Made by a program: the position numbers and the translations under genes
Assembly (NCBI RefSeq): GCF_000010625.1
Contig: NC_010296.1
Coordinates: 5,040,001-5,072,000 of the forward strand
DNA: 32,000 nucleotides
Origin: Microcystis aeruginosa NIES-843
GTDB lineage: Bacteria > Cyanobacteriota > Cyanobacteriia > Cyanobacteriales > Microcystaceae
Reading direction: 5' to 3'
Notes under the pieces: model-generated
The model's input: only the letters and a program-made list of their open reading frames with translations
Database searches by the model: none
What the model was told of the DNA's origin: nothing
In this document: piece after piece, positions 15,068-29,689 of the stretch
Layout of the letters: the number at the start of each line of letters is the position of its first letter
Position numbering within the stretch: the first letter of the stretch is position 1

Positions 15068-16354
15068 ATGCTAGTCGTAGAAGCCAAGTTAAAAAACGGG
15101 ACACCAGAACAATACCAAAGACTAGATGAAGCAATTAGGACATCTCAGTTTGTGCGTAACTCTTGTGTTCGTTATTGGCGGTCCAATCAAGGGACAACCC
15201 GCAATGATCTCCAAAAACTTTGCTCGGTACTAGCTAACAATAAAGAGACACCTTGGGTTAATAAGCTTAACTCCCAAGCTCGTCAATCGGCTGCTGATAG
15301 AGCCTGGCAATCAATTAGTCGGTTTTACCAGAATTGTCATGCTAAGATACTTGGGAAAAAGGGTTTTCCTCGGTTCAAGAAGCATAGTCGTTCGGTTGAG
15401 TATAAACTAACAGGCTACCAACTATCTGAGGATCGACGTAAAATCAGATTTACTGAAGGTTTTAAAGCAGGAGAATTTGATTTATGGTGTAGTCAAAAGA
15501 CATTAGTTTATTATTCAGAGCAACAGATTAAACGGGTAAGAGTTGTTAGACGTGCTGATGGTTATTATTGTCAGTTTTTGATTGACGTAGAACGGCAAGA
15601 ATACCATAAACCGACGGGACAAATAACAGGAATTGACTTAGGGTTAAAGGAATTTTATACCGATGCCCAAGGCAATACTGTAGAGAATCCACGTTATTTA
15701 AGAAAGTCAGAAAAACGACTGAAAAAAGCACAAAGGAGATTATCAAAACAATTTCGCAAAGGAAAGAAACAGTCTAACAACTATCACAAGCAACGGATAA
15801 AAGTAGCTAGGCTTCATCTTAAAGTATCAAGACAACGTAAAGACAAAGCAATTAAAGACGCTTTGGCGTTAGTCCAGTCTAATGATCTGGTAGTCTATGA
15901 AGCTTTAAAGGTAAGAAACTTAGTCAAAAATCGTCAGCTGTCTAAGTCGATTAGTGATGCTTCTTGGTATCAATTCACTGAATGGTTTGAATTTTTTGCC
16001 AAGATTTATCGGATTGTTTGTGTTGCTGTTCCTCCTCATTTCACTAGCCAAGATTGTTCAGTTTGTGGGACGAGAGTTCAAAAATCATTAAGCACTAGAA
16101 CTCATCAATGTCCTAACTGTAAAACAATCTTAGATAGGGATCATAATGCAGCAATCAACATTCTTAAAAAAGGGTTAAAATATTTGGGAAATCATCTCAA
16201 CGGTACTGTTGGGCAAACAGAAACCGACCCAAACGCCTTGGGAGAGTCCGGCCTCTGGATTCTTAATGGAGACATTGAGAATCTAAGCTGTCTCGTTGAA
16301 CAAGGAATTTCCGATAGTGATAGGTCAAGAATCCCCCGTCACAGCGTAGCTTGA
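15068..16354 (+). CDS. tnpB: TnpB (IS200/IS605-family OrfB, RuvC-like RNA-guided nuclease); no tnpA partner nearby
   Basis: RuvC triad candidates are ITGIDLGLKE (Asp), LVVYEALKV (Glu) and LDRDHNAAINI (Asp). A zinc ribbon CSVCG...CPNC is present. The N-terminal QYQRLDEAIRTSQFVRNSCVRYW is typical of cyanobacterial TnpB. A TATAAT box lies at about 15042 upstream. Confidence 0.9.
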   Translation: MLVVEAKLKNGTPEQYQRLDEAIRTSQFVRNSCVRYWRSNQGTTRNDLQKLCSVLANNKETPWVNKLNSQARQSAADRAWQSISRFYQNCHAKILGKKGFPRFKKHSRSVEYKLTGYQLSEDRRKIRFTEGFKAGEFDLWCSQKTLVYYSEQQIKRVRVVRRADGYYCQFLIDVERQEYHKPTGQITGIDLGLKEFYTDAQGNTVENPRYLRKSEKRLKKAQRRLSKQFRKGKKQSNNYHKQRIKVARLHLKVSRQRKDKAIKDALALVQSNDLVVYEALKVRNLVKNRQLSKSISDASWYQFTEWFEFFAKIYRIVCVAVPPHFTSQDCSVCGTRVQKSLSTRTHQCPNCKTILDRDHNAAINILKKGLKYLGNHLNGTVGQTETDPNALGESGLWILNGDIENLSCLVEQGISDSDRSRIPRHSVA

Positions 16355-20666: not shown

Positions 20667-21356
20667 CTAACCGTTAGCAATCACCAGACTTTTAAGAACA
20701 TTTTCGGTCATGGCCGCTATTTGATCCAATTGTTCCTGATGGCGTTTTGCCTGTTTTTTGGCTTCTACCTTGCGTTTCAGGGCTTCCCGGGCTAAATCAT
20801 CGCGATTTCTGCTTAAAGCTTCGATCGCTACTCGATTCCATGTTTCTGCTTCTTGAATGGCTTTTTTATACTGGGGTTGAATTTCATCCCAACTGACCTT
20901 AAGATTGCTTAAAGCCCCTTTTAACAGGGTTTGGGCATTGTTGGGGTCGGCTCCGATGAGGGATTTTTTCAGAGGTTCGTAGAGTCCCACCGCTTGTAAA
21001 TGGGTAATAATCGGGATAAATTCTTCTATCTGTTGACTTTTGCTAATACCGGTTTTACACCAAGTGGCAAAATGTTCGCAGTTGTTAAAAAGAAGATTAT
21101 ATTTCTGTTCCCCCAGACGACTTAGCGCCCTTTCTACCACCACATCGGGGATAAAGGAAAATCCCACCTCTACATGGCGCACCACATAGATTTTACCGCC
21201 CCTAGCAAAGGTTTCTAGGGAAGTTCGTTCGACAATCTCGCTCGGTTTTCGGTAATGAATGACGCTACCATCACCGCAATCGATGCCATGATGGGCATAA
21301 ACACCCTGAAGATTGAGCAATTCCCGATAGGCGTATATTTGATCCCCTCTAGCCAT
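20667..21356 (-). CDS. LRAT/NlpC-P60-superfamily (NC domain) protein with a C-terminal PspA/IM30-like helical segment
   Basis: GDQIYAYR...YAHHGIDCGDGSVIHY (His box) and LLFNNCEHFATWCKTG (NCEHF catalytic Cys) are present. The C-terminal WNRVAIEALSRNRDDLAREALKRKVEAKKQAK resembles the PspA N-terminal helices. Confidence 0.75.
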   Translation of the reverse strand: MARGDQIYAYRELLNLQGVYAHHGIDCGDGSVIHYRKPSEIVERTSLETFARGGKIYVVRHVEVGFSFIPDVVVERALSRLGEQKYNLLFNNCEHFATWCKTGISKSQQIEEFIPIITHLQAVGLYEPLKKSLIGADPNNAQTLLKGALSNLKVSWDEIQPQYKKAIQEAETWNRVAIEALSRNRDDLAREALKRKVEAKKQAKRHQEQLDQIAAMTENVLKSLVIANG

Positions 21357-21465: not shown

Positions 21466-21747
21466 TTATGAATTAAAGCCAGCAAATAGCTTAAGTCGAA
21501 GATGTTCAAGATTGCTGCATCCATAACTTATTTTTTTAATAGGCTTTATTTTTGTATTCATGCCCTCAGTTAATCCATTGGTTGTATAATTTTCACAGTA
21601 ATTACCTAACCGTTGACTCTGTGGAAGGACTCTGCTGGGGCAGCGGGGAAGGAGAATCACTAACCCTCCTAGAGGCGCGATTCCTGATTTTGAAAATATG
21701 CGCTGCCGCTTTTTAGCCAGCCTTTCGCCATAATTTTTGATTATCAT
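21466..21747 (-). pseudogene. ISL3-family transposase C-terminal remnant
   Basis: NGLTEGMNTKIKPIKKISYGCSNLEHLRLKLF matches the ISL3 C-terminal N-G-x-x-E-G-x-N-x-K-I-K...Y-G motif. Only about the last 50 codons look homologous, and there is no DDE core. Confidence 0.65.
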
Positions 21748-22683: not shown

Positions 22684-22723
22684 AGAAAAAACAGGGGTCA
22701 ATTTTTCTATAGTGACCCCTGTT
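22684..22723 (-). terminator. Intrinsic terminator ending the 22785-23477 transcription unit
   Basis: The minus-strand RNA reads AACAGGGGUCA-N12-UGACCCCUGUU, a perfect 11-bp stem, followed directly by UUUUUCUG. Confidence 0.75.
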
Positions 22724-22784: not shown

Positions 22785-23477
22785 CTAGTGGTTAATACAG
22801 TGGCGACAATGACGGACACAATGACTACAATCATTATGGATGTAACAAGCTGTTGCACCTTTTACAGGATTATTTGGCTCAAATGTCCATAAAGTCTGAG
22901 TTAATTTGTCCGGGTCAATGCTTGCTTGGACAGTGGCGGAACAAGTTAGTGTACGGGCTGCGTCATCTGTTGTTTCAACGATGATTTCTCCTTCAGCTAG
23001 TTTGATTAAACCCCGGTGAATAATGGCGATACCGAAAATATCCGCCAATCCCAATTCTGATAATTTGGTAGCCATTTCAGCTAAAAATTCATGATTAGAA
23101 GTTACCGATTCAGCCGCCTCTTTAATATTGTGAGTCTCATGATTAACTCGGGCAAATTCGAGGGGAAAGTAGTTCCATGTTCCTGATTGTTGAGCGGCTT
23201 CGACTTTCCATAAGTAGGCGGTCACGTCTGAACAATCGGCCTCAATCCGAGGCTGAATAAGAAACTGATTATCAACAAAGTCCTCGACCAAACGCTCCTG
23301 CGGATCGAGGTCAAAGTGTTTGTGGAGTAACGATACACCTACGTCTTGATGTAAATTATAGGCACAGATTACGTCTCCAAGTTCCAGTAGATGGTCTTGG
23401 CGTTTTTCCAACTGTTCTCGGGCGATGGAGAATTCATTGAGTTGGTTAAAAATGTTGGGGTTATATGTAGTTCTCAT
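22785..23477 (-). CDS. Hypothetical protein with a C-terminal Cys/His cluster
   Basis: 230 aa; no family recognised. The tail is GATACYIHNDCSHCVRHCRHCINH (6 Cys and 5 His in the last 21 residues). It lies downstream of, and on the same strand as, the two NTPase genes. Confidence 0.55.
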   Translation of the reverse strand: MRTTYNPNIFNQLNEFSIAREQLEKRQDHLLELGDVICAYNLHQDVGVSLLHKHFDLDPQERLVEDFVDNQFLIQPRIEADCSDVTAYLWKVEAAQQSGTWNYFPLEFARVNHETHNIKEAAESVTSNHEFLAEMATKLSELGLADIFGIAIIHRGLIKLAEGEIIVETTDDAARTLTCSATVQASIDPDKLTQTLWTFEPNNPVKGATACYIHNDCSHCVRHCRHCINH

Positions 23478-23690
23478 GGTTACTTTTTCATTCCAAACTA
23501 AGTGGGTTGACGAAGATGTTGTCTGAGATGATTACAGTGTAGGGGTGATTCTTATGAAAATAGCTGTTGATGGATTTATTTTTTTAAGAAATGTTCAGTT
23601 ATCGAAAGTTTGGGAAAAAAGTTGATAATTCAGGCCGTGAAAAGGAGGAGCGTGAATTTTTTTTCAAGGTATGGCTGAGAACATCGGCAG

Positions 23691-26600
23691 TTAGCGAGAA
23701 GTTTTCAGAGCTTGTTGACAGACAGGAAGTTCTTGTAAGTCTTGGGGGTGGGAGACAAAGTAATCTTTCAGCCAATGACATCCCCGGACGAGTAAAGCAT
23801 CTAGATCCTCGATCAGCCAAAGTCGAGCAGTTGCATCCATTGAGCCTGTAGCTAGATATTTCCCATCGGGACTAAAAGCTACACTTTTGACACCTTCCTG
23901 ATGTCCCTTGAATTCTGCGAGGATATTGCCTTGCAGATCCCATAAACGAGCCGTGTTATCCCATGAGCCAGTAGCTAGATATTTTCCATCAGGACTGAAG
24001 GCGACACTACTGACACCTTCCTGATGTCCCTTGAACTTGGTTAGTAAATTTCCCTTGAGATCCCAAAGACGCGCCGTATTATCGCCTGAGCCAGTAGCTA
24101 GATATTTTCCATCAGGACTGAAGGCGACACTACTGACACCCTGCTGATGTCCCTTGAACTTGGTTAGTAAATTTCCCTTGAGATCCCAAAGACGCGCCGT
24201 ATTATCGCCTGAGCCAGTAGCTAGATATTTTCCATCAGGACTGAAGGCGACACTACTGACACCCTGCTGATGTCCCTTGAACTGTGCCAGTAAATTTCCT
24301 TTGAGATCCCATAAACGAGCAGTATTATCCTGTGAACCTGTAGCGAGATATTGATCGTCAGGACTGAAGGCTATAGTATTAATGTCTAAATTTTTCCTAT
24401 GTCCTTTAAACTCTATTAGCAGCTTGCCTTGTAGATTCCAAAGTCTTGCAATTCCATCTTCTGAACCCGTAGCTAGATATTGACTATTAGGACTAAAAGC
24501 TACACTAGCATCAAAATCTGCAACAGTAGCACCAAATTTAAGGTCACGTTTACCCAAATTTACAAGCAATTTTCCTTGTAAATCCCATATCTGAGCGATT
24601 GCAGATCTTTTTGGTCCCGTAGCCAAGTATTTGCCATTAGGACTAAAGGAGACAGAAGAAATATGATGTATACTACAATAAATAGCTTGGAAAGCAATTG
24701 ATTCTGTCGATTCATAGCAATCTTTGGCAATGTCAATCAGAACATTACTGGCTATACAAGGTTGTATTCTTTCGTTATCTTTTAGACAACTCAACTGCGT
24801 GATCAAATCTTTCGGTAAATCCCAAACAAAAAGAGTATCATTTTTATCAATTACTCCTGTTGATGCTATCGACATGAGATATTGTCCATCAGGACTAAAC
24901 TCTAAACGTTTTCCCTGATCAAAGTGTACTTTAAACTGTATAATTAAGTTTCCTTTCAGATTCCAGAGCCGAACGGCACCATAATAATCAAGCGTCGCTA
25001 GATATTTGCCATCAGGACTAAAAGATACGTCTATAACCCCTCTTTGATGCCCATTTAATTCTGTAATTACATTTCTTTTGATATCCCAGAGTTCTGCTTC
25101 AAATGACCGTGTAACCAAATATTTACTATCAGGACTGAATACAATTCTTTTGTTTTTTTTGAACTCTTTCACTAAATTTCCTTTAATATCCCAAAGACGC
25201 GCCGTATCATTCTCATCCTCTGATCCAGTGGCTAGATATTTTCCATTGGGACTAAAAGCTACACTTTCGACATCCTCATCCTTCTGGTGTCCCTTGAATT
25301 CGGTCAGTAAATTTCCTTTAAGATCCCAAAGACGAAGCGTATTATCCTTTGAACCCGTAGCGAGGTATTTACCATCGGGACTAAAATTCACACTTACGAC
25401 ATTATTTTGATGTCCCTTCAATTCTGCAATTAAATTACCATTGAGATCCCACAGTCGAGCCGTATCATCCATTGAACCCGTGGCGAGATATTTCCCATCG
25501 GGACTAAAAGCTACTGTTTCTACATCCCCTTGATGTCCCTTAAACTCTTTCAGTAAATTTCCTTTAAGATCCCACAGCCGAGCCGTATCATCCTCTGATC
25601 CAGTGACAAGATATTTCCCATCGGGACTAAAAGCTACTGTTTCTACATCCTCTTGATGTCCCTTGAACTCGGTCAGTAAATTTCCTTTGAGATCCCAAAG
25701 ATGTATAGCTCCATCTTTTGATTCGGTAACAATATATTGACCGTTAGGACTTAAAGTTATAATTTTAGCTTGAAAAACAAGACGGTTTCTTTCTTGTATT
25801 TCATTAATAATAGTACGTATGGTGAGCAAAAAACCAGGGGCAGAATATTCATTTTTAAAACCAGATTTAGCCACATTTTGCAACTCTTGCCCTATTTCTA
25901 ACGCCTCTATCAATAAACTGATCTGTCCCTCATTTCCATTCTCAAAACGCCGAGATATATTAATCCCTCTTTGCTCCAACTGTGTCAGCTTAATAGTCAA
26001 TTGTTGTGCTTGTTCTGCCTTTTGTAAATTTCTATTCACCTCCTCTAACCTTTGACGATTAACTTGAAGACTTCCTTTAATTTCTTGTAACTCACCTTGA
26101 CTTTTCCGCGTTCTCGATTCTGCCTCTAACTTTTGTGCCAAGATGATTTGACGTTCCCGTTCTAAAATAGTTTTTTGCCTCTGAAATTGTGTAACTTGTT
26201 GTTGAGCTTGATTCCTAGCCGTTTCTAGCCGCTTTAGATTACCTTGAGCAACAGCCAATCGCTGTCTCGCATTCAACTCAATTTGGCGGCGTTCTGCGCT
26301 CACTTGTGATAGCCTGTCATTAGCTCTAATAACTTCCTGTCCGATTTTATCTCGTTCTTTTTTTATATTAGTTAAAGCTTGCATTGATTGATTTGCCTCT
26401 TGAGATGCTCTTTCAGCTTTAGTTGTTTGAATAATCGCAAAAACTAATGTTCCCGCTATGATCAATGCACTGGCAATGATCGAGCCTGTTAAAGCTTTTT
26501 GAGCTTTCTTTTTTGCTTTCTCTAGAATTTTTTTCGCTTCTCTTTCTGCCTCAATTTTCTGAGCGGAGTCTTTATCCTTTTGGGCTAATTTACTATCTCG

Positions 26601-27848
26601 GATAAACTCTTCATCCTCTCGGGTTAGAAATTTTCCCTCTCTCCAAATATCCGCCCGTGCTGTTTCAGTCTCGTCCAGCAAGTAAACATTATTTTTCTCC
26701 GAAGCAAGCCAAGCATTCAAAGCAACAGCATAAGGGCGTAAATTATCTAACTGTTTTTGTACCCATTCGAGGGAGAAAACCTCTCGATAAATAGGATTAA
26801 AAATCTCTAAATCGGCATTTCTCTTAACAACTAAACCAGATAAGCGTAACTCCGATTCTAACTGATTTCCCTCTGTCGTAAAATAACCATTTTGTAGAAT
26901 ATGGCGATAAATTTCCAACAATTTTCCAGTCAATATTTCCTTTGCCAATAATCGAGTTTTTATGTATTTTAAATGGAGAGGATCATCTTGCGCTTCCCAG
27001 TTACGGATGATTGATGAGTAGATAAATTCCTCGATAAAAGACTTTTCTTGACCTTCCCCAATCCTAACCTGAGATTCAACCAACAAAGCACAAACTTTTT
27101 GTGTTAAAAAAGGTTGTCCTCCCGTCCAAAATAAAATCTCCCTCAAGACTTCTTCAGGAACATTCGCCACGTCCTGTAGTCCTTGCGCTAAAACTAAACT
27201 TTCATTAAATTCAAACCCTCTTAGCTCAATAGCTCGACCAATATTAAACGGACTCTGTAAAGGATTTTGAATTAAATCATTCGGTGTTGCTACTCCTAAA
27301 AAACAAAATGTTAAACGATTAAATTCATCGTACTCTGCCCGCTTTTCATGAAAAGCACGAATCAAACCAAAAAAATTATCCCTAAAAGATAACTCTAGAA
27401 TTTTATCAATTTCATCAATAAAAATAACCAAATTAGAAGATGTTAATGGCAATAAAACTTCCACAATAAAGTCCGAAAAAGAGCTAACAGATCCTTGTCC
27501 AGAAAACCTTGACCAGCATTCATCAAAATTAGCCTGTTTCTGCAAATTTAAACCGCGAAATATTTTTTTAGACAACCCGCGATACCATTGATTTTCAGAA
27601 CTAGATTGGCTAACGCCCATTTCCTGAAGCGACAAATAAACACATTGATTTTCCTGGGCATTAGTAGCTTCTAGACGGATTTTTACTTGAGCCTGAAGAG
27701 ATGACTTTCCCATCTGACGACAGTTAAAAACATAACAAAAATAATTTTGTTTTAACAGTTCATATAACTGACCATCCGCAAAACGCTTAACATAGCTCGG
27801 CGTATGGGCATGGAGTTTGCCTCCATATTTATAGAAATTGTTAATCAT
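23691..27848 (-). CDS. AAA_35/STAND-like NTPase - TM helix - coiled coil - ~15 WD40 repeats (1385 aa)
   Basis: Walker A is NCRQMGKSSL, Walker B is LVIFIDEIDKI, and the STAND-type motif is TGGQPFLTQ. A hydrophobic helix LTGSIIASALIIAGTLVFAIIQT lies at aa ~453-474 (nt 26427-26492). A ~200-aa Q/E/R/L-rich coiled coil follows. Then come ~15 units of the form GH-x-x-V-x-SVAFSPDGKYLATGS-x-D-x-TARLWDL (nt ~23810-25750), with a ~45-aa insert between blades 8 and 9. Confidence 0.85.
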   Translation of the reverse strand: MINNFYKYGGKLHAHTPSYVKRFADGQLYELLKQNYFCYVFNCRQMGKSSLQAQVKIRLEATNAQENQCVYLSLQEMGVSQSSSENQWYRGLSKKIFRGLNLQKQANFDECWSRFSGQGSVSSFSDFIVEVLLPLTSSNLVIFIDEIDKILELSFRDNFFGLIRAFHEKRAEYDEFNRLTFCFLGVATPNDLIQNPLQSPFNIGRAIELRGFEFNESLVLAQGLQDVANVPEEVLREILFWTGGQPFLTQKVCALLVESQVRIGEGQEKSFIEEFIYSSIIRNWEAQDDPLHLKYIKTRLLAKEILTGKLLEIYRHILQNGYFTTEGNQLESELRLSGLVVKRNADLEIFNPIYREVFSLEWVQKQLDNLRPYAVALNAWLASEKNNVYLLDETETARADIWREGKFLTREDEEFIRDSKLAQKDKDSAQKIEAEREAKKILEKAKKKAQKALTGSIIASALIIAGTLVFAIIQTTKAERASQEANQSMQALTNIKKERDKIGQEVIRANDRLSQVSAERRQIELNARQRLAVAQGNLKRLETARNQAQQQVTQFQRQKTILERERQIILAQKLEAESRTRKSQGELQEIKGSLQVNRQRLEEVNRNLQKAEQAQQLTIKLTQLEQRGINISRRFENGNEGQISLLIEALEIGQELQNVAKSGFKNEYSAPGFLLTIRTIINEIQERNRLVFQAKIITLSPNGQYIVTESKDGAIHLWDLKGNLLTEFKGHQEDVETVAFSPDGKYLVTGSEDDTARLWDLKGNLLKEFKGHQGDVETVAFSPDGKYLATGSMDDTARLWDLNGNLIAELKGHQNNVVSVNFSPDGKYLATGSKDNTLRLWDLKGNLLTEFKGHQKDEDVESVAFSPNGKYLATGSEDENDTARLWDIKGNLVKEFKKNKRIVFSPDSKYLVTRSFEAELWDIKRNVITELNGHQRGVIDVSFSPDGKYLATLDYYGAVRLWNLKGNLIIQFKVHFDQGKRLEFSPDGQYLMSIASTGVIDKNDTLFVWDLPKDLITQLSCLKDNERIQPCIASNVLIDIAKDCYESTESIAFQAIYCSIHHISSVSFSPNGKYLATGPKRSAIAQIWDLQGKLLVNLGKRDLKFGATVADFDASVAFSPNSQYLATGSEDGIARLWNLQGKLLIEFKGHRKNLDINTIAFSPDDQYLATGSQDNTARLWDLKGNLLAQFKGHQQGVSSVAFSPDGKYLATGSGDNTARLWDLKGNLLTKFKGHQQGVSSVAFSPDGKYLATGSGDNTARLWDLKGNLLTKFKGHQEGVSSVAFSPDGKYLATGSWDNTARLWDLQGNILAEFKGHQEGVKSVAFSPDGKYLATGSMDATARLWLIEDLDALLVRGCHWLKDYFVSHPQDLQELPVCQQALKTSR
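23964..24332 (-). repeat. Three tandem 123-bp WD40-encoding units with very high nucleotide identity
   Basis: Units start at 23964, 24087 and 24210. Units 1 and 2 differ at 2 of 123 nt (CACCTTCCTG vs CACCCTGCTG). Units 2 and 3 are identical over the first ~74 nt. Confidence 0.9.
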
Positions 27849-27897
27849 TGTTGATCACCTATAGATTTGAACCTAATTACTAAAAAATAATGGCAAT

Positions 27898-29313
27898 TTA
27901 AAGGTGTAAATATCTGGCAAAATATTCACGGTATAAGCGACAGCCTATCTCAACACCATCTTTTGTTCTTGATACTAATCCCAAGCTATACAACTCAAAA
28001 GTTTCTATTGGATTTAATACGACAGGTCGATTGCTTTCAATGACTTTTTTGAGACATTCCTTGAGACCATATTGACAAATGCTCCTATAAAGACGAGAGA
28101 GATACTCATGATAAATTCCTACCTCTGTTGCCGCCTCCGCTAAGATAGTCTCTAGTGTTTTTTCTTCTTTGCTTAGGGAGTACATAGCTTGGCGAATCAA
28201 ATAGGGATGTCCTCCAATCATTTCTTGCAAGGCTTCTAGTTGTGTCTCTGTCAATCTGAGACTATGTTTTTGAGATAAATTTAAAACTTCCCGATGATTA
28301 AACTCTCTCAACTCTTGTCCTTTACCTACGTTTGCTAGAGGAGATCCAGCCAAGCTCTTGATTACATAATCATCTGTAGAATAGGCTAAAATCAGCACTA
28401 ACTTTCGCCACAACTGATTGGTTACGCCTTTTTCATGCCATGCTCGTAATTTTTCCAAGAAATCTGTCAACGCTGGATCCTCACAAACACAGAGCAAATT
28501 ATCTAAGCCAAGAAATATTGGTTTATCAATTTTGCTAAGGATAAAATCTTCAAGAAACTCATCACAAGCGTCGGAAGCAAAAGACTCTTTATCCCATTGT
28601 GACCTGAGATTTTCACGAATATCAAGTCCGATTTGACGACCGATTTGCTTACATAGCCATGGATAAAAAACATCTGGAGTTAGGATCTCGCGGTCAGTAT
28701 TTAGGTCTAAATAGACGGCCTTGCCTTGACCATTTTTAACCATTGTATTGTTTAACAAGCCTTTTATTAACGATGTCTTCCCCATCCGACTCGGTGCTTT
28801 TAGGCGTAGCAAGATAGCTTGCTCTCCAGCATTATTTAAATAAGTATGACAATTTTGCTCAATAGGAGAACGTTCTTGATAGTAAAGTGAATCAGTGGCA
28901 ACAGTACCACTGGGCAGAGGAATATTTAATTCGTACTGCTCTAGTGTGTCCACAGTTACAAAATCAGGGATATACCTGACACAATTGTTAACAACCTGTC
29001 GTAAATCATCTGTTAAATTTCCCGTTGATTCAACGCCAAAAGTATTGCAAATTCCCCGTAAATGATGGGCTAGTAAGGATTGTTCCGTTAACTGGCCGGC
29101 TTCAAGCATCTCCAACCGTTCTCGTTGTCGTGGTTGCAAGTTTTCTCGATTTCTTTCAGTCAATACCTCACGATCAAGCCAAACCGTCTTATCTCCACGA
29201 ATTGACTGATATGACTTCCCCCGCAGGAGACGACGCAAAATTCGTTTTTGAATAGGCGTTAGTTGCTCATGATAAATATTGTCAAACGCTTCTGGTGTTA
29301 ATCGTAGTGGCAT
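27898..29313 (-). CDS. AAA_35/STAND-like NTPase paralog with an N-terminal LuxR/sigma-r4-like HTH (471 aa), no repeat domain
   Basis: Walker A is KAPSRMGKTSLIKGLL. The Walker B-like motif is PIFLGLDNLLCV (Asp-Asn instead of Asp-Glu). GGHPYLIRQ and LRAWHEKG align with GGQPFLTQ and IRAFHEKR of the neighbour. The N-terminus has LTPIQKRILRRLLRGKSYQSI ... LLAHHLRGICNTFGV, which is HTH-like with an insert. Confidence 0.75.
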   Translation of the reverse strand: MPLRLTPEAFDNIYHEQLTPIQKRILRRLLRGKSYQSIRGDKTVWLDREVLTERNRENLQPRQRERLEMLEAGQLTEQSLLAHHLRGICNTFGVESTGNLTDDLRQVVNNCVRYIPDFVTVDTLEQYELNIPLPSGTVATDSLYYQERSPIEQNCHTYLNNAGEQAILLRLKAPSRMGKTSLIKGLLNNTMVKNGQGKAVYLDLNTDREILTPDVFYPWLCKQIGRQIGLDIRENLRSQWDKESFASDACDEFLEDFILSKIDKPIFLGLDNLLCVCEDPALTDFLEKLRAWHEKGVTNQLWRKLVLILAYSTDDYVIKSLAGSPLANVGKGQELREFNHREVLNLSQKHSLRLTETQLEALQEMIGGHPYLIRQAMYSLSKEEKTLETILAEAATEVGIYHEYLSRLYRSICQYGLKECLKKVIESNRPVVLNPIETFELYSLGLVSRTKDGVEIGCRLYREYFARYLHL

Positions 29314-29689
29314 TTTAGGATTTCTCCTGAGTAAGCTTCTCTCAACATTCTAAGTAATGCCTGCCGATCTGCAACAGCCAAGTAATTATACTCAGGGTAA
29401 AACCTCTAGGATCTCAGGCAACTCATCCAGTCTAACGATAGGATATAGGTCAAGACGTTTTTCTTTAACAGTTTGAAATTTTAGTTGAAAAATTTCTTTT
29501 ATTATGCCTTGTCCTTGAATTTTTTTTCAAGCTCCACTGTTGTCTTATCCCGACTGCCCAATTTTTCTTAAGCTTCAAGAGAGAATTTTATAAAATAAAT
29601 TATTTTTCTTTCTGATTGCTCAAGGTTCTCAAAACAAGCTGTAAGGTAAAAGTGTTAGGTCAAATCACCGATTCAATTGAGGACGAACA

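Follow-up and report, generated by a model that had tools for sequence, protein, structure and literature searches.

We analysed a stretch of 32,000 nucleotides from the cyanobacterium Microcystis aeruginosa NIES-843 (contig NC_010296.1, positions 5,040,001 to 5,072,000; hereafter the window) and found that two adjacent genes in it encode paralogous NTPases of the AAA_35 family, which probably form one functional module, with an effector–nucleotide-binding oligomerisation domain (NOD)–sensor layout split over the two proteins. The upstream gene, termed type A, encodes a protein of 471 amino acids (aa) with an N-terminal output domain, and the downstream gene, termed type B, a protein of 1385 aa carrying sensor repeats; the products exactly match BAG05315.1 and BAG05314.1 of NIES-843, respectively. 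The proposal draws on the observed homology of the two proteins, on their gene order, co-conservation and co-divergence, on the domain repertoires of their relatives and on one natural fusion. A first-pass annotation, made from the letters of the window alone, had described the two genes as a co-functioning paralogous pair reminiscent of paired NOD-like receptors (NLRs), and as far as sequence comparison can speak for function, synteny, co-divergence and the fusion strongly support that idea.

As had been supposed, both proteins belong to the AAA_35 family. Against the Pfam profile (PF14516, 331 positions, gathering score 27 bits), the 471-aa protein gave a full-domain match of 292.9 bits (E 3.2e-87) over residues 134-466 and profile positions 2-330, and the N-terminus of the 1385-aa protein one of 116.7 bits (E 1.3e-33) over residues 10-358 and profile positions 4-329. 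The shared NTPase motifs read in the first-pass annotation were all there, namely RMGKTSL, LRAWHEK and GGHPYL in type A and QMGKSSL, IRAFHEK and GGQPFL in type B. The two proteins are 25% identical over 209 aa (E 2e-10), and type B is a divergent AAA_35 subfamily, cleanly set apart from type A by subfamily hidden Markov models (HMMs) that we built for the two cores and on which the subfamily assignment depends. A recent tandem duplication was rejected on the grounds of this low identity and of the split between two old subfamilies. Type A consists of an N-terminal output domain followed by a canonical AAA_35 core with a D-N Walker B; type B begins with its core, which has a D-E Walker B, and continues with a single predicted transmembrane (TM) helix, a coiled-coil-like linker and then the sensor repeats. 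An alignment of 14 type-A sequences showed G178, D271 and G367-G368-H369-P370 to be invariant, and the Walker B Asp, also invariant, was followed by N, D or K. Among 36 aligned type-B sequences, with a mean column identity of 52%, K48, E146, D148 and G244-Q245-P246 were invariant and D145 was kept in at least 90%; a protein database search with the type-B query gave more than 7600 relatives, and their C-termini are variable. The Walker B of the short protein had been read as LGLDN rather than IDE and taken to suggest binding without hydrolysis; the letters are right, but the site is not degenerate, as hhhhD-N is the state of the type-A family as a whole, and the notion of a decayed copy with a degenerate Walker B was rejected on the same ground. 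With its D-N Walker B, type A may hydrolyse slowly.

The AlphaFold2 (AF2) model of type A, made with 21 homologs, reached a predicted local distance difference test (pLDDT) score of 86.6 and comprised a helical N-domain, a nucleotide-binding domain, a helical domain and a winged-helix-like C-terminal domain with a beta-hairpin. Foldseek placed archaeal ATPase_2 (2qen, E 1.6e-8; 2fna) and ORC/Cdc6 at the top ranks for this model, the two groups together spanning E 1.6e-8 to 1e-6, closely followed by Sr35, Apaf-1, NRC2/4, ZAR1, CED-4 and Avs3/4, with E 3e-6 to 1e-4 for Sr35, Apaf-1, NRC and Avs3/4. By sequence, a profile search of the type-A family against PDB chains gave spurious saposin matches only. 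Signal transduction ATPases with numerous domains (STAND) are reportedly recognised, by criteria ascribed to Leipe et al. 2004, from a Walker A GK[ST], an hhhhD[DE] Walker B, a GxP motif in the helical domain, a winged helix and an effector-NOD-repeat chain. Both proteins carry the Walker A (RMGKTSL in type A, QMGKSSL in type B) and the hhhhD of the Walker B (IFLGLD and VIFID, respectively), which are invariant or nearly so in the two alignments; type B also has the second acidic Walker B residue (D-E), which type A lacks (D-N; N, D or K in the subfamily). We take the invariant GGHP of type A to be the GxP motif of STAND helical domains, and type B has an invariant GQP within GGQP at the equivalent site; the helical and winged-helix domains are seen in the AF2 model of type A and are presumed for type B by homology. 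Neither protein has the tripartite layout in one chain, type A being without repeats and type B without an N-terminal domain. Because the two proteins agree with the STAND description only in part, and the nearest folds of type A include ORC/Cdc6 and ATPase_2 as well as NLR and Avs proteins, we refer to them as STAND-like AAA_35 NTPases without assigning them to STAND itself.

The recurrence of the pair in other genomes, which the first-pass annotation had put forward as a check, was investigated in two scans, each confined to the 80 top hits among at least 577 confirmed relatives. The first comprised 80 genomic loci, one genome per species and nearly all from named cyanobacteria, a few being labelled just 'uncultured bacterium', with longest-ORF (open reading frame) calls; the second, reciprocal one used the type-B core profile on metagenome contigs and yielded 87 type-B genes. 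Among the 83 type-A genes of the genomes, a type-B gene lay directly downstream on the same strand in 27 and within 6 kb in 26, none was found in 20, and the contig ended in 10, so that 53 of the 73 informative genes had a downstream type B. With equal room for a type-B gene on both sides of type A, the genes within 6 kb in the 80 species genomes were downstream on the same strand in 57 cases, upstream on the same strand in 2 and on the opposite strand in 6. In the metagenomes, type A was adjacent upstream of 43 type-B genes and within 6 kb of 16; 4 belonged to tandem type-B arrays, 8 had no type A, and 16 had no room for one, which gives an upstream type A for 59 of the 71 informative genes. 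A gap of -49 to +300 bp was found for 27/83 type-A genes in genomes and 43/87 type-B genes in metagenomes. The two genes are clearly co-conserved, and the condition that would have refuted the first-pass annotation, a lack of co-conservation in other genomes, does not hold. Orthologous pairs at 34-50% identity were present in Cylindrospermopsis, Cronbergia, Anabaena, Okeania and Crocosphaera, and close homologs sharing the N-terminal domain of the window protein had a type-B gene within 20-50 bp in Cylindrospermopsis, Cronbergia, Anabaena, Dolichospermum, Aphanizomenon and Crocosphaera.

Same-strand runs at the 160 loci were AB in 103 instances, ABB or ABBB in 6 and ABAB in 1; neither BA alone nor AA occurred. 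Moreover, the distances among type-A cores and among type-B cores were correlated across 71 adjacent pairs (Mantel r 0.763, a value reached by 0 of 999 permutations). In an Allocoleopsis metagenome-assembled genome (MAG) we also found a natural fusion of the two partners (L065:5780-7918, + strand), a protein of 712 aa with two AAA_35 stretches (618.7 bits), in which a type-B core (aa 7-367) precedes a type-A core (aa 377-711), the opposite of the usual gene order; it is a fusion of the Rosetta-stone type. As a separate observation, loci with multiple type-B genes (L052, L070, L080, L113, L120 and L143) contain ABB, ABBB or BBB runs, an arrangement that resembles several sensors per executor. 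Pair members are often broken: one Cylindrospermopsis strain has a truncated type B (L003:9344-11122, 396 + 167 aa), A. gracile has a split one (L006:11469-14646, 724 + 341 aa, with WD40 on the second piece), and type A is frameshifted in Okeania (L011:3740-5251); these could be cases of decay or assembly errors in repeats.

The domains attached to the two cores differ in kind. In 79 scanned type-A N-terminal domains we found TIR (19), protein kinase (8), CHAT (7), GerE (5) and Cro/C1-type helix-turn-helix (HTH; HTH_3) (4), and more rarely trypsin-like (3), EAD1 (2) and EAD4, caspase, cyclase and Macro domains (1 each); the N-domain of some type-A proteins is covered by Pfam family PF26355. 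The C-termini of type B carried WD40 repeats in 28/53, with about 14 units, and otherwise TPR, GUN4, CHASE2, PG_binding_1, HisKA with HATPase_c, or trypsin-like domains. The earlier proposal that the repeats are the sensor and the HTH the output is consistent with these repertoires, which fit a split between output and sensor. Genes of RTX type were seen near some pairs: in Microcoleus (L036, L038, L040, L043, L044 and L051), one or two opposite-strand RTX/HemolysinCabind genes lie between a type A with a PF26355 HTH and the type B, and in A. gracile a Calx-beta/RTX gene (L006:7730-9001) lies upstream of the pair. They could be regulatory targets or cargo.

The TM helix, coiled coil and about 15 WD40 blades noticed earlier in the long protein were recovered by hydropathy, composition and motif count, respectively. 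The protein has a strong hydrophobic helix at residues 455-473 (Kyte-Doolittle 2.41) and a linker segment of ~215 residues that is 42% E/Q/K/R with 1 Pro. Its WD40 region matched Pfam WD40 (PF00400) at 3.1e-158 in 11 stretches, and the motif count gave 15 units, which probably form two propellers. Across 118 full-length type-B proteins, 76 had exactly one predicted TM helix, separated from the core by a median of 61 aa, and its flanks held a mean of 4.57 K+R on the N-terminal vs 2.42 on the C-terminal side, the N-flank being more basic in 65 proteins and less so in 1. On account of this positive-inside bias around a single TM helix, the type-B NTPase is predicted to be cytoplasmic and the C-terminal region extracytoplasmic, a prediction with which the CHASE2 and peptidoglycan-binding C-termini of other type-B proteins agree.

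Comparison of the Microcystis protein with its ortholog in Dolichospermum LEGE 00240, in which ~135 aa of the coiled-coil segment are missing, gave 90% identity for the core, 95% for linker and TM helix and 55% for the WD40 region. Since WD40 identity is so much below that of the core, this comparison indicates that the sensor part of type B turns over far faster than the switch core. At the DNA level, part of the WD40 region consists of tandem repeats of 123 bp (23841-24371, with 88% matches, and 25159-25701), as detected by Tandem Repeats Finder; two successive units translate into the same 41-aa repeat, from which a third departs in two residues. Variation among the WD40 repeats is concentrated in the residues that directly follow the GH dipeptide or GS, positions that lie on the ligand-binding top face of propellers. 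In this respect the region is like the WD repeats of fungal NLRs, which are highly conserved yet diversifying.

The N-terminal domain of the type-A protein in the window had been called a LuxR-like HTH. Direct Pfam detection failed, as GerE (PF00196) matched residues 17-38 only (E 0.57), scoring 10.3 bits where 23.5 are required. The type-A N-domains of L037 and L025, however, match Pfam GerE at 3.8e-8 and 1.1e-5, and when the window N-domain family was aligned by hhalign with such bona fide GerE domains of type A, the probability was 98.6% (E 1.4e-15, 87 columns). PF26355-like N-domains matched the window domain weakly (hhalign probability 28%). Profile-profile comparison thus upholds the homology to GerE, but the HTH is atypical and not contiguous: in 7/7 members of the subfamily of the window protein an insertion of ~40 residues parts helix 2 from the recognition helix. 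Because the HTH is split in this way before its recognition helix, DNA binding by the window protein is not assured.

Membrane topology, signalling direction, hetero-oligomerisation, DNA binding and biological role, be it defence or environmental signalling, would in our proposal fit together as follows. Type B would be the receptor, its NTPase core lying in the cytoplasm, with the TM helix and coiled coil holding two WD40 propellers on the extracytoplasmic side for the binding of a ligand. Ligand binding would switch the type-B core, which by its canonical D-E Walker B should be able to hydrolyse ATP, to an ATP-bound, oligomerisation-competent state, and NOD-NOD contacts would then let this core recruit or nucleate the type-A core, in the manner of NAIP and NLRC4. 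The clustering of type A would gather its N-terminal domains and thereby produce the output, which for the window pair would be a change in transcription via the LuxR/GerE-type HTH, and for sister modules with TIR, CHAT, caspase, trypsin or kinase domains a defensive or suicidal one. Extending this to the type-B proteins in general, we suggest only tentatively that they are transmembrane NLR-like receptors that relay a signal from an outside WD40, TPR or CHASE2 sensor through a cytoplasmic NOD to a paralogous NOD with a TIR, caspase-like, kinase or HTH output.

Several observations weigh against the proposal that the two proteins form one such membrane-spanning module. The division between sensor and effector is blurred by a few enzymatic type-B C-termini (trypsin, a kinase-like PD-T4-6 match and HisKA). 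Our TM calls come from hydropathy only and the coiled-coil calls from composition only, and four WD40-bearing type-B proteins are without a TM helix (L025, L037, L070 and L075), showing that an extracytoplasmic WD40 region is not general. The ~40-residue insertion in the HTH was modelled at lower confidence (pLDDT 67-73). As for the pairing itself, the counts of both scans are samples and not a census, the Mantel correlation partly reflects a common species phylogeny, and 20/73 informative type-A and 8/71 informative type-B genes have no partner nearby; such genes may act alone or in trans.

The same data can be read in other ways. Membrane-bound type B could keep type A inactive in a resting hetero-complex, and ligand binding or loss of B would then free A, much as RGA5 represses RGA4 or an anti-sigma factor holds a sigma factor. 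Co-conservation, co-divergence and the fusion apply equally to such a guard, the membrane anchor of B and a DNA-binding domain on A would suit sequestration and release, type-A genes without a nearby B exist, and sequence cannot tell nucleation from release of repression. Loss of the guard is evidently tolerated, however, in the broken type-B genes beside an intact A (L003, L006), which would be costly if free A were toxic, though perhaps cheap for an HTH output, and on balance we regard repression by B, although the chief rival reading, as unlikely. It is quite improbable that type A is a mere local transcription factor of the type-B gene and that adjacency reflects cis-regulation with no signalling between the proteins. 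The HTH of the window protein and the frequency of HTH variants in type A would be in keeping with this, but in the majority of type-A proteins the N-domain is of the TIR, kinase, CHAT or protease kind and so unable to regulate transcription, and these proteins, too, occur in the A-then-B order; moreover, A lies upstream on the same strand, often in overlapping or coupled frames (gaps of -49 to +50), and not in a divergent layout, and a local regulator would leave both the natural B-A fusion and the common NTPase core unexplained.

That the two genes are independent paralogs and neighbours by chance, left by duplication or as the remnant of a transferred island, we consider hardly credible. 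The pair does seem to lie in a horizontally transferred block flanked by insertion sequence (IS) remnants, and its linkage in Microcystis alone proves little; yet the partners, at 25% identity, come from anciently separated subfamilies, and the A-then-B pairing is seen again in different cyanobacterial orders, is strongly directional and goes together with co-divergence and a fusion, so that the synteny counts of the sampled loci in effect refute a chance neighbourhood. Our preferred reading remains a module in which the type-B receptor acts through type A.

The nearest functional analogues of such a module would be NAIP/NLRC4 and the sensor/executor NLR pairs of plants; its nearest bacterial kin in kind would be single-chain STAND proteins. 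Like paired NLRs, the A-B pair consists of two linked paralogous NODs, of which one bears the sensor and its partner the signalling domain; the likeness is one of working and not of homology. NAIP and NLRC4 are likewise paralogous NOD NTPases, one for the ligand and the other, with an N-terminal signalling domain, recruited by NOD-NOD contacts, and they too have several sensor paralogs per executor, comparable to the ABB and ABBB arrays. They differ in having NACHT rather than AAA_35 domains, each with its own leucine-rich repeats, in being cytosolic and in lacking an operon, and their hetero-oligomerisation is demonstrated, whereas that of A and B is inferred, the B-A fusion and the co-divergence of the cores lending it indirect support only. 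The plant pairs RGA4/RGA5 and RRS1/RPS4 and the NRC networks share genetic linkage, the sensor/executor split, co-evolution and rapid diversification of the sensor; plant pairs, however, are usually head-to-head with both members full NB-ARC-LRR proteins, whereas the A-B pair strictly separates effector and sensor.

Among bacterial proteins, Avs1-5, bNACHT, MalT/LAL and AfsR resemble the pair in combining NTPase, helical and winged-helix domains, in the GxP motif, in repeat sensors (TPR, WD40) and in TIR, protease, nuclease or HTH effectors, and the fold of the type-A model is similar to Avs3, Avs4 and Apaf-1; these single-chain STAND proteins differ in holding all functions in one cytosolic polypeptide, and in MalT the LuxR HTH is C-terminal. 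ORC/Cdc6 and archaeal ATPase_2 (PF01637), to which the type-A model is structurally most similar, are replication initiators without effector or sensor domains, although ORC is also a hetero-oligomer of paralogous AAA+ and winged-helix subunits, some of which bind ATP without hydrolysing it. Kaur, Burroughs, Iyer and Aravind (2020; PMC7159879) described MoxR-vWA ternary, GTPase-centric, EAD-coupled and TRADD-N conflict systems. These systems share with the pair TIR, CHAT/caspase, trypsin, EAD1/EAD4 and HTH effectors, the combination of constant and hypervariable modules and an enrichment in cyanobacteria; the main text of that paper and one text supplement make no mention of AAA_35 or of a paralogous NTPase pair.

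The pair appears to be uncatalogued. PADLOC-DB 2.0 held no system model for the cores of the window proteins, the short one matching PDC-S27 (E 4e-4) and the long one HEAT-ARM_XIII by its WD40 region, and ten diverse A and B proteins gave PADLOC matches via TIR, CHAT, protease or TPR domains only. NCBIfam assigns no family to either core. No published description of the A-B pair was found in the searchable literature, a coverage that ends short of subscription journals and of the supplementary tables of the 2026 STAND survey (589 clades).

NLR/STAND switches are central to the immunity of animals, plants, fungi and bacteria, and the bacterial examples studied to date are single-chain and cytosolic. 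If our reading is correct, the ordered NOD pair brings the paired-NLR logic of sensor and executor to prokaryotes and offers a simple, operon-encoded model of one NOD activating another. Its predicted membrane-spanning topology would add sensing outside the cytoplasm, which is not known for the NLR/STAND class, and, on the tentative extension to type-B proteins in general, would amount to a prokaryotic outside-in immune or signalling pathway that joins the logic of Toll-like receptors to that of NAIP/NLRC4 and is abundant, though uncatalogued, in cyanobacteria. Both families are large, with more than 7600 type-B matches and at least 600 stretches in each scan, and the module would give a functional frame to many 'AAA-like domain' and 'WD-repeat' annotations in cyanobacteria, including Microcystis, Dolichospermum and Aphanizomenon.

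The features of the locus are collected in Table 1; the three ORFs that the first-pass annotation had named agree in coordinates and strand with our ORF calls. Database names of the pair are at odds with its domain content. The UniRef entry for the 471-aa protein (B0JGP9) is named 'Serine/threonine protein kinase', a name that probably spread from kinase-AAA_35 relatives, and the NCBI name of the 1385-aa protein is 'eIF2A-related protein'; the domain content supports neither.

Table 1. Features of the AAA_35 pair and its surroundings, in positions of the window
Feature	Positions	Strand	Basis or remark
5' region of the pair: TATAAT-like -10, leader, AGGAG ribosome-binding site	29314..29448	-	~90% identical in the Aphanizomenon and Dolichospermum copies
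Type-A AAA_35 gene, output-bearing NTPase, 471 aa, BAG05315.1	27898..29313	-	ORF, Pfam AAA_35, AF2
N-terminal LuxR/GerE-type HTH domain, aa 1-130	28924..29313	-	hhalign
Insertion in HTH, aa 41-77	29083-29193	-	between helix 2 and recognition helix
Recognition helix, aa 78-96	29026-29082	-	hhalign
Type-A AAA_35 core	27916..28914	-	Pfam and alignment
Type-A Walker A PSRMGKTSL	28768-28794	-	motif
Type-A Walker B IFLGLDN	28498-28518	-	motif
Type-A LRAWHEK	28429-28449	-	motif
Type-A GxP motif IGGHPYL	28198-28218	-	motif
Spacer between type-A and type-B genes, 49 bp	27849..27897	-	no hairpin or terminator-like site; compatible with co-transcription
Type-B AAA_35 gene, membrane-anchored (predicted) sensor-bearing NTPase, 1385 aa, BAG05314.1	23691..27848	-	Pfam AAA_35 and WD40
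Type-B AAA_35 core, aa 2-394	26667..27845	-	Pfam and alignment
Type-B Walker A CRQMGKSSL	27696-27722	-	motif
Type-B Walker B LVIFIDEID	27405-27431	-	motif
Type-B IRAFHEK	27342-27362	-	motif
Type-B GxP motif TGGQPFL	27105-27125	-	motif
Single predicted TM helix ALTGSIIASALIIAGTLVFAIIQTT, Lys-rich N-flank, predicted N-in/C-out	26421..26495	-	hydropathy
Coiled-coil-like linker, aa 477-690	25779..26420	-	composition
~15 WD40 units	23811..25778	-	Pfam and motif count
230-aa gene, (C-x-H-C)n tail, neighbour outside the module	22785..23477	-	synteny
Intrinsic-terminator-like hairpin + U6	22684..22723	-	fold energy
ISL3 transposase remnant	21466-21747	-	
LRAT/NlpC-P60-like protein with PspA-like C-terminal coiled coil	20667-21356	-	
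TnpB/OrfB_IS605 gene with Cas12f-like TNB domain	15068-16354	+	

The region around the pair bears signs of exchange. Positions 24925-29448 of the window are 87% identical in DNA to the A. gracile locus (L006) by blastn, and the EamA gene 79%; the segment 21779-29448, holding the pair and EamA, is common to A. gracile and Dolichospermum LEGE 00240 (L006, L008) at 79-87% DNA identity. Upstream, the similarity to the Aphanizomenon and Dolichospermum copies begins abruptly, ~135 bp 5' of the 471-aa gene. Microcystis records with the protein are few. The GC content of the pair is 38.9% vs 42.1% in the remaining window, so the AT-richness claimed earlier has the right direction but is weak. Taken together, the high DNA identity, the sharp 5' edge, the GC offset, the IS remnants and the small number of Microcystis records suggest that the pair is an accessory block exchanged horizontally between bloom-forming Chroococcales and Nostocales, and the near-identical copy in Microcystis, Dolichospermum and Aphanizomenon suggests exchange of the module within bloom communities. 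IMG/VR viral contigs contained no type-B relative, and a phage origin was rejected on this basis.

The gene for the 230-aa protein, which follows the type-B gene after 213 bp, had been thought to complete a three-gene unit with the pair. This was not borne out, and a three-gene operon was rejected on synteny: the protein has 27 homolog clusters, none of 87 AAA_35 loci compared carries a homolog, and the contexts of two homologs that we looked at were unrelated to AAA_35. The closest orthologous loci have no gene at its position, the type-B gene abutting EamA, which is inverted with respect to the window; in comparison with the A. gracile and Dolichospermum LEGE 00240 loci, the 230-aa gene occurs in Microcystis only. 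The Cys/His tail seen earlier is there and conserved in its family, which is small and cyanobacterial; the motifs LLHKHF and PLE are invariant in it, an ETTD-like stretch is conserved, and the (C-x-H-C)n tail forms the C-terminus. The annotation of Microcoleus relatives, 'glycerol-3-phosphate ABC transporter substrate-binding protein', finds no support in our data. The AF2 model of the protein (pLDDT 86.8, predicted template-modelling score 0.82) had no structural match in the PDB by Foldseek, the best E being 0.17.

The strong terminator that had been proposed to close off the three genes exists as a hairpin, but it closes the transcript of the 230-aa gene, and its link to the transcript of the pair is unsupported. 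It was passed over by the terminator scanner, its loop of 12 nt exceeding the limit of the program. The hairpin has a G+C-rich stem of 10-11 bp and a folding energy of -17.5 kcal/mol (z -4.1), and 0 of 200 shuffled sequences were as stable.

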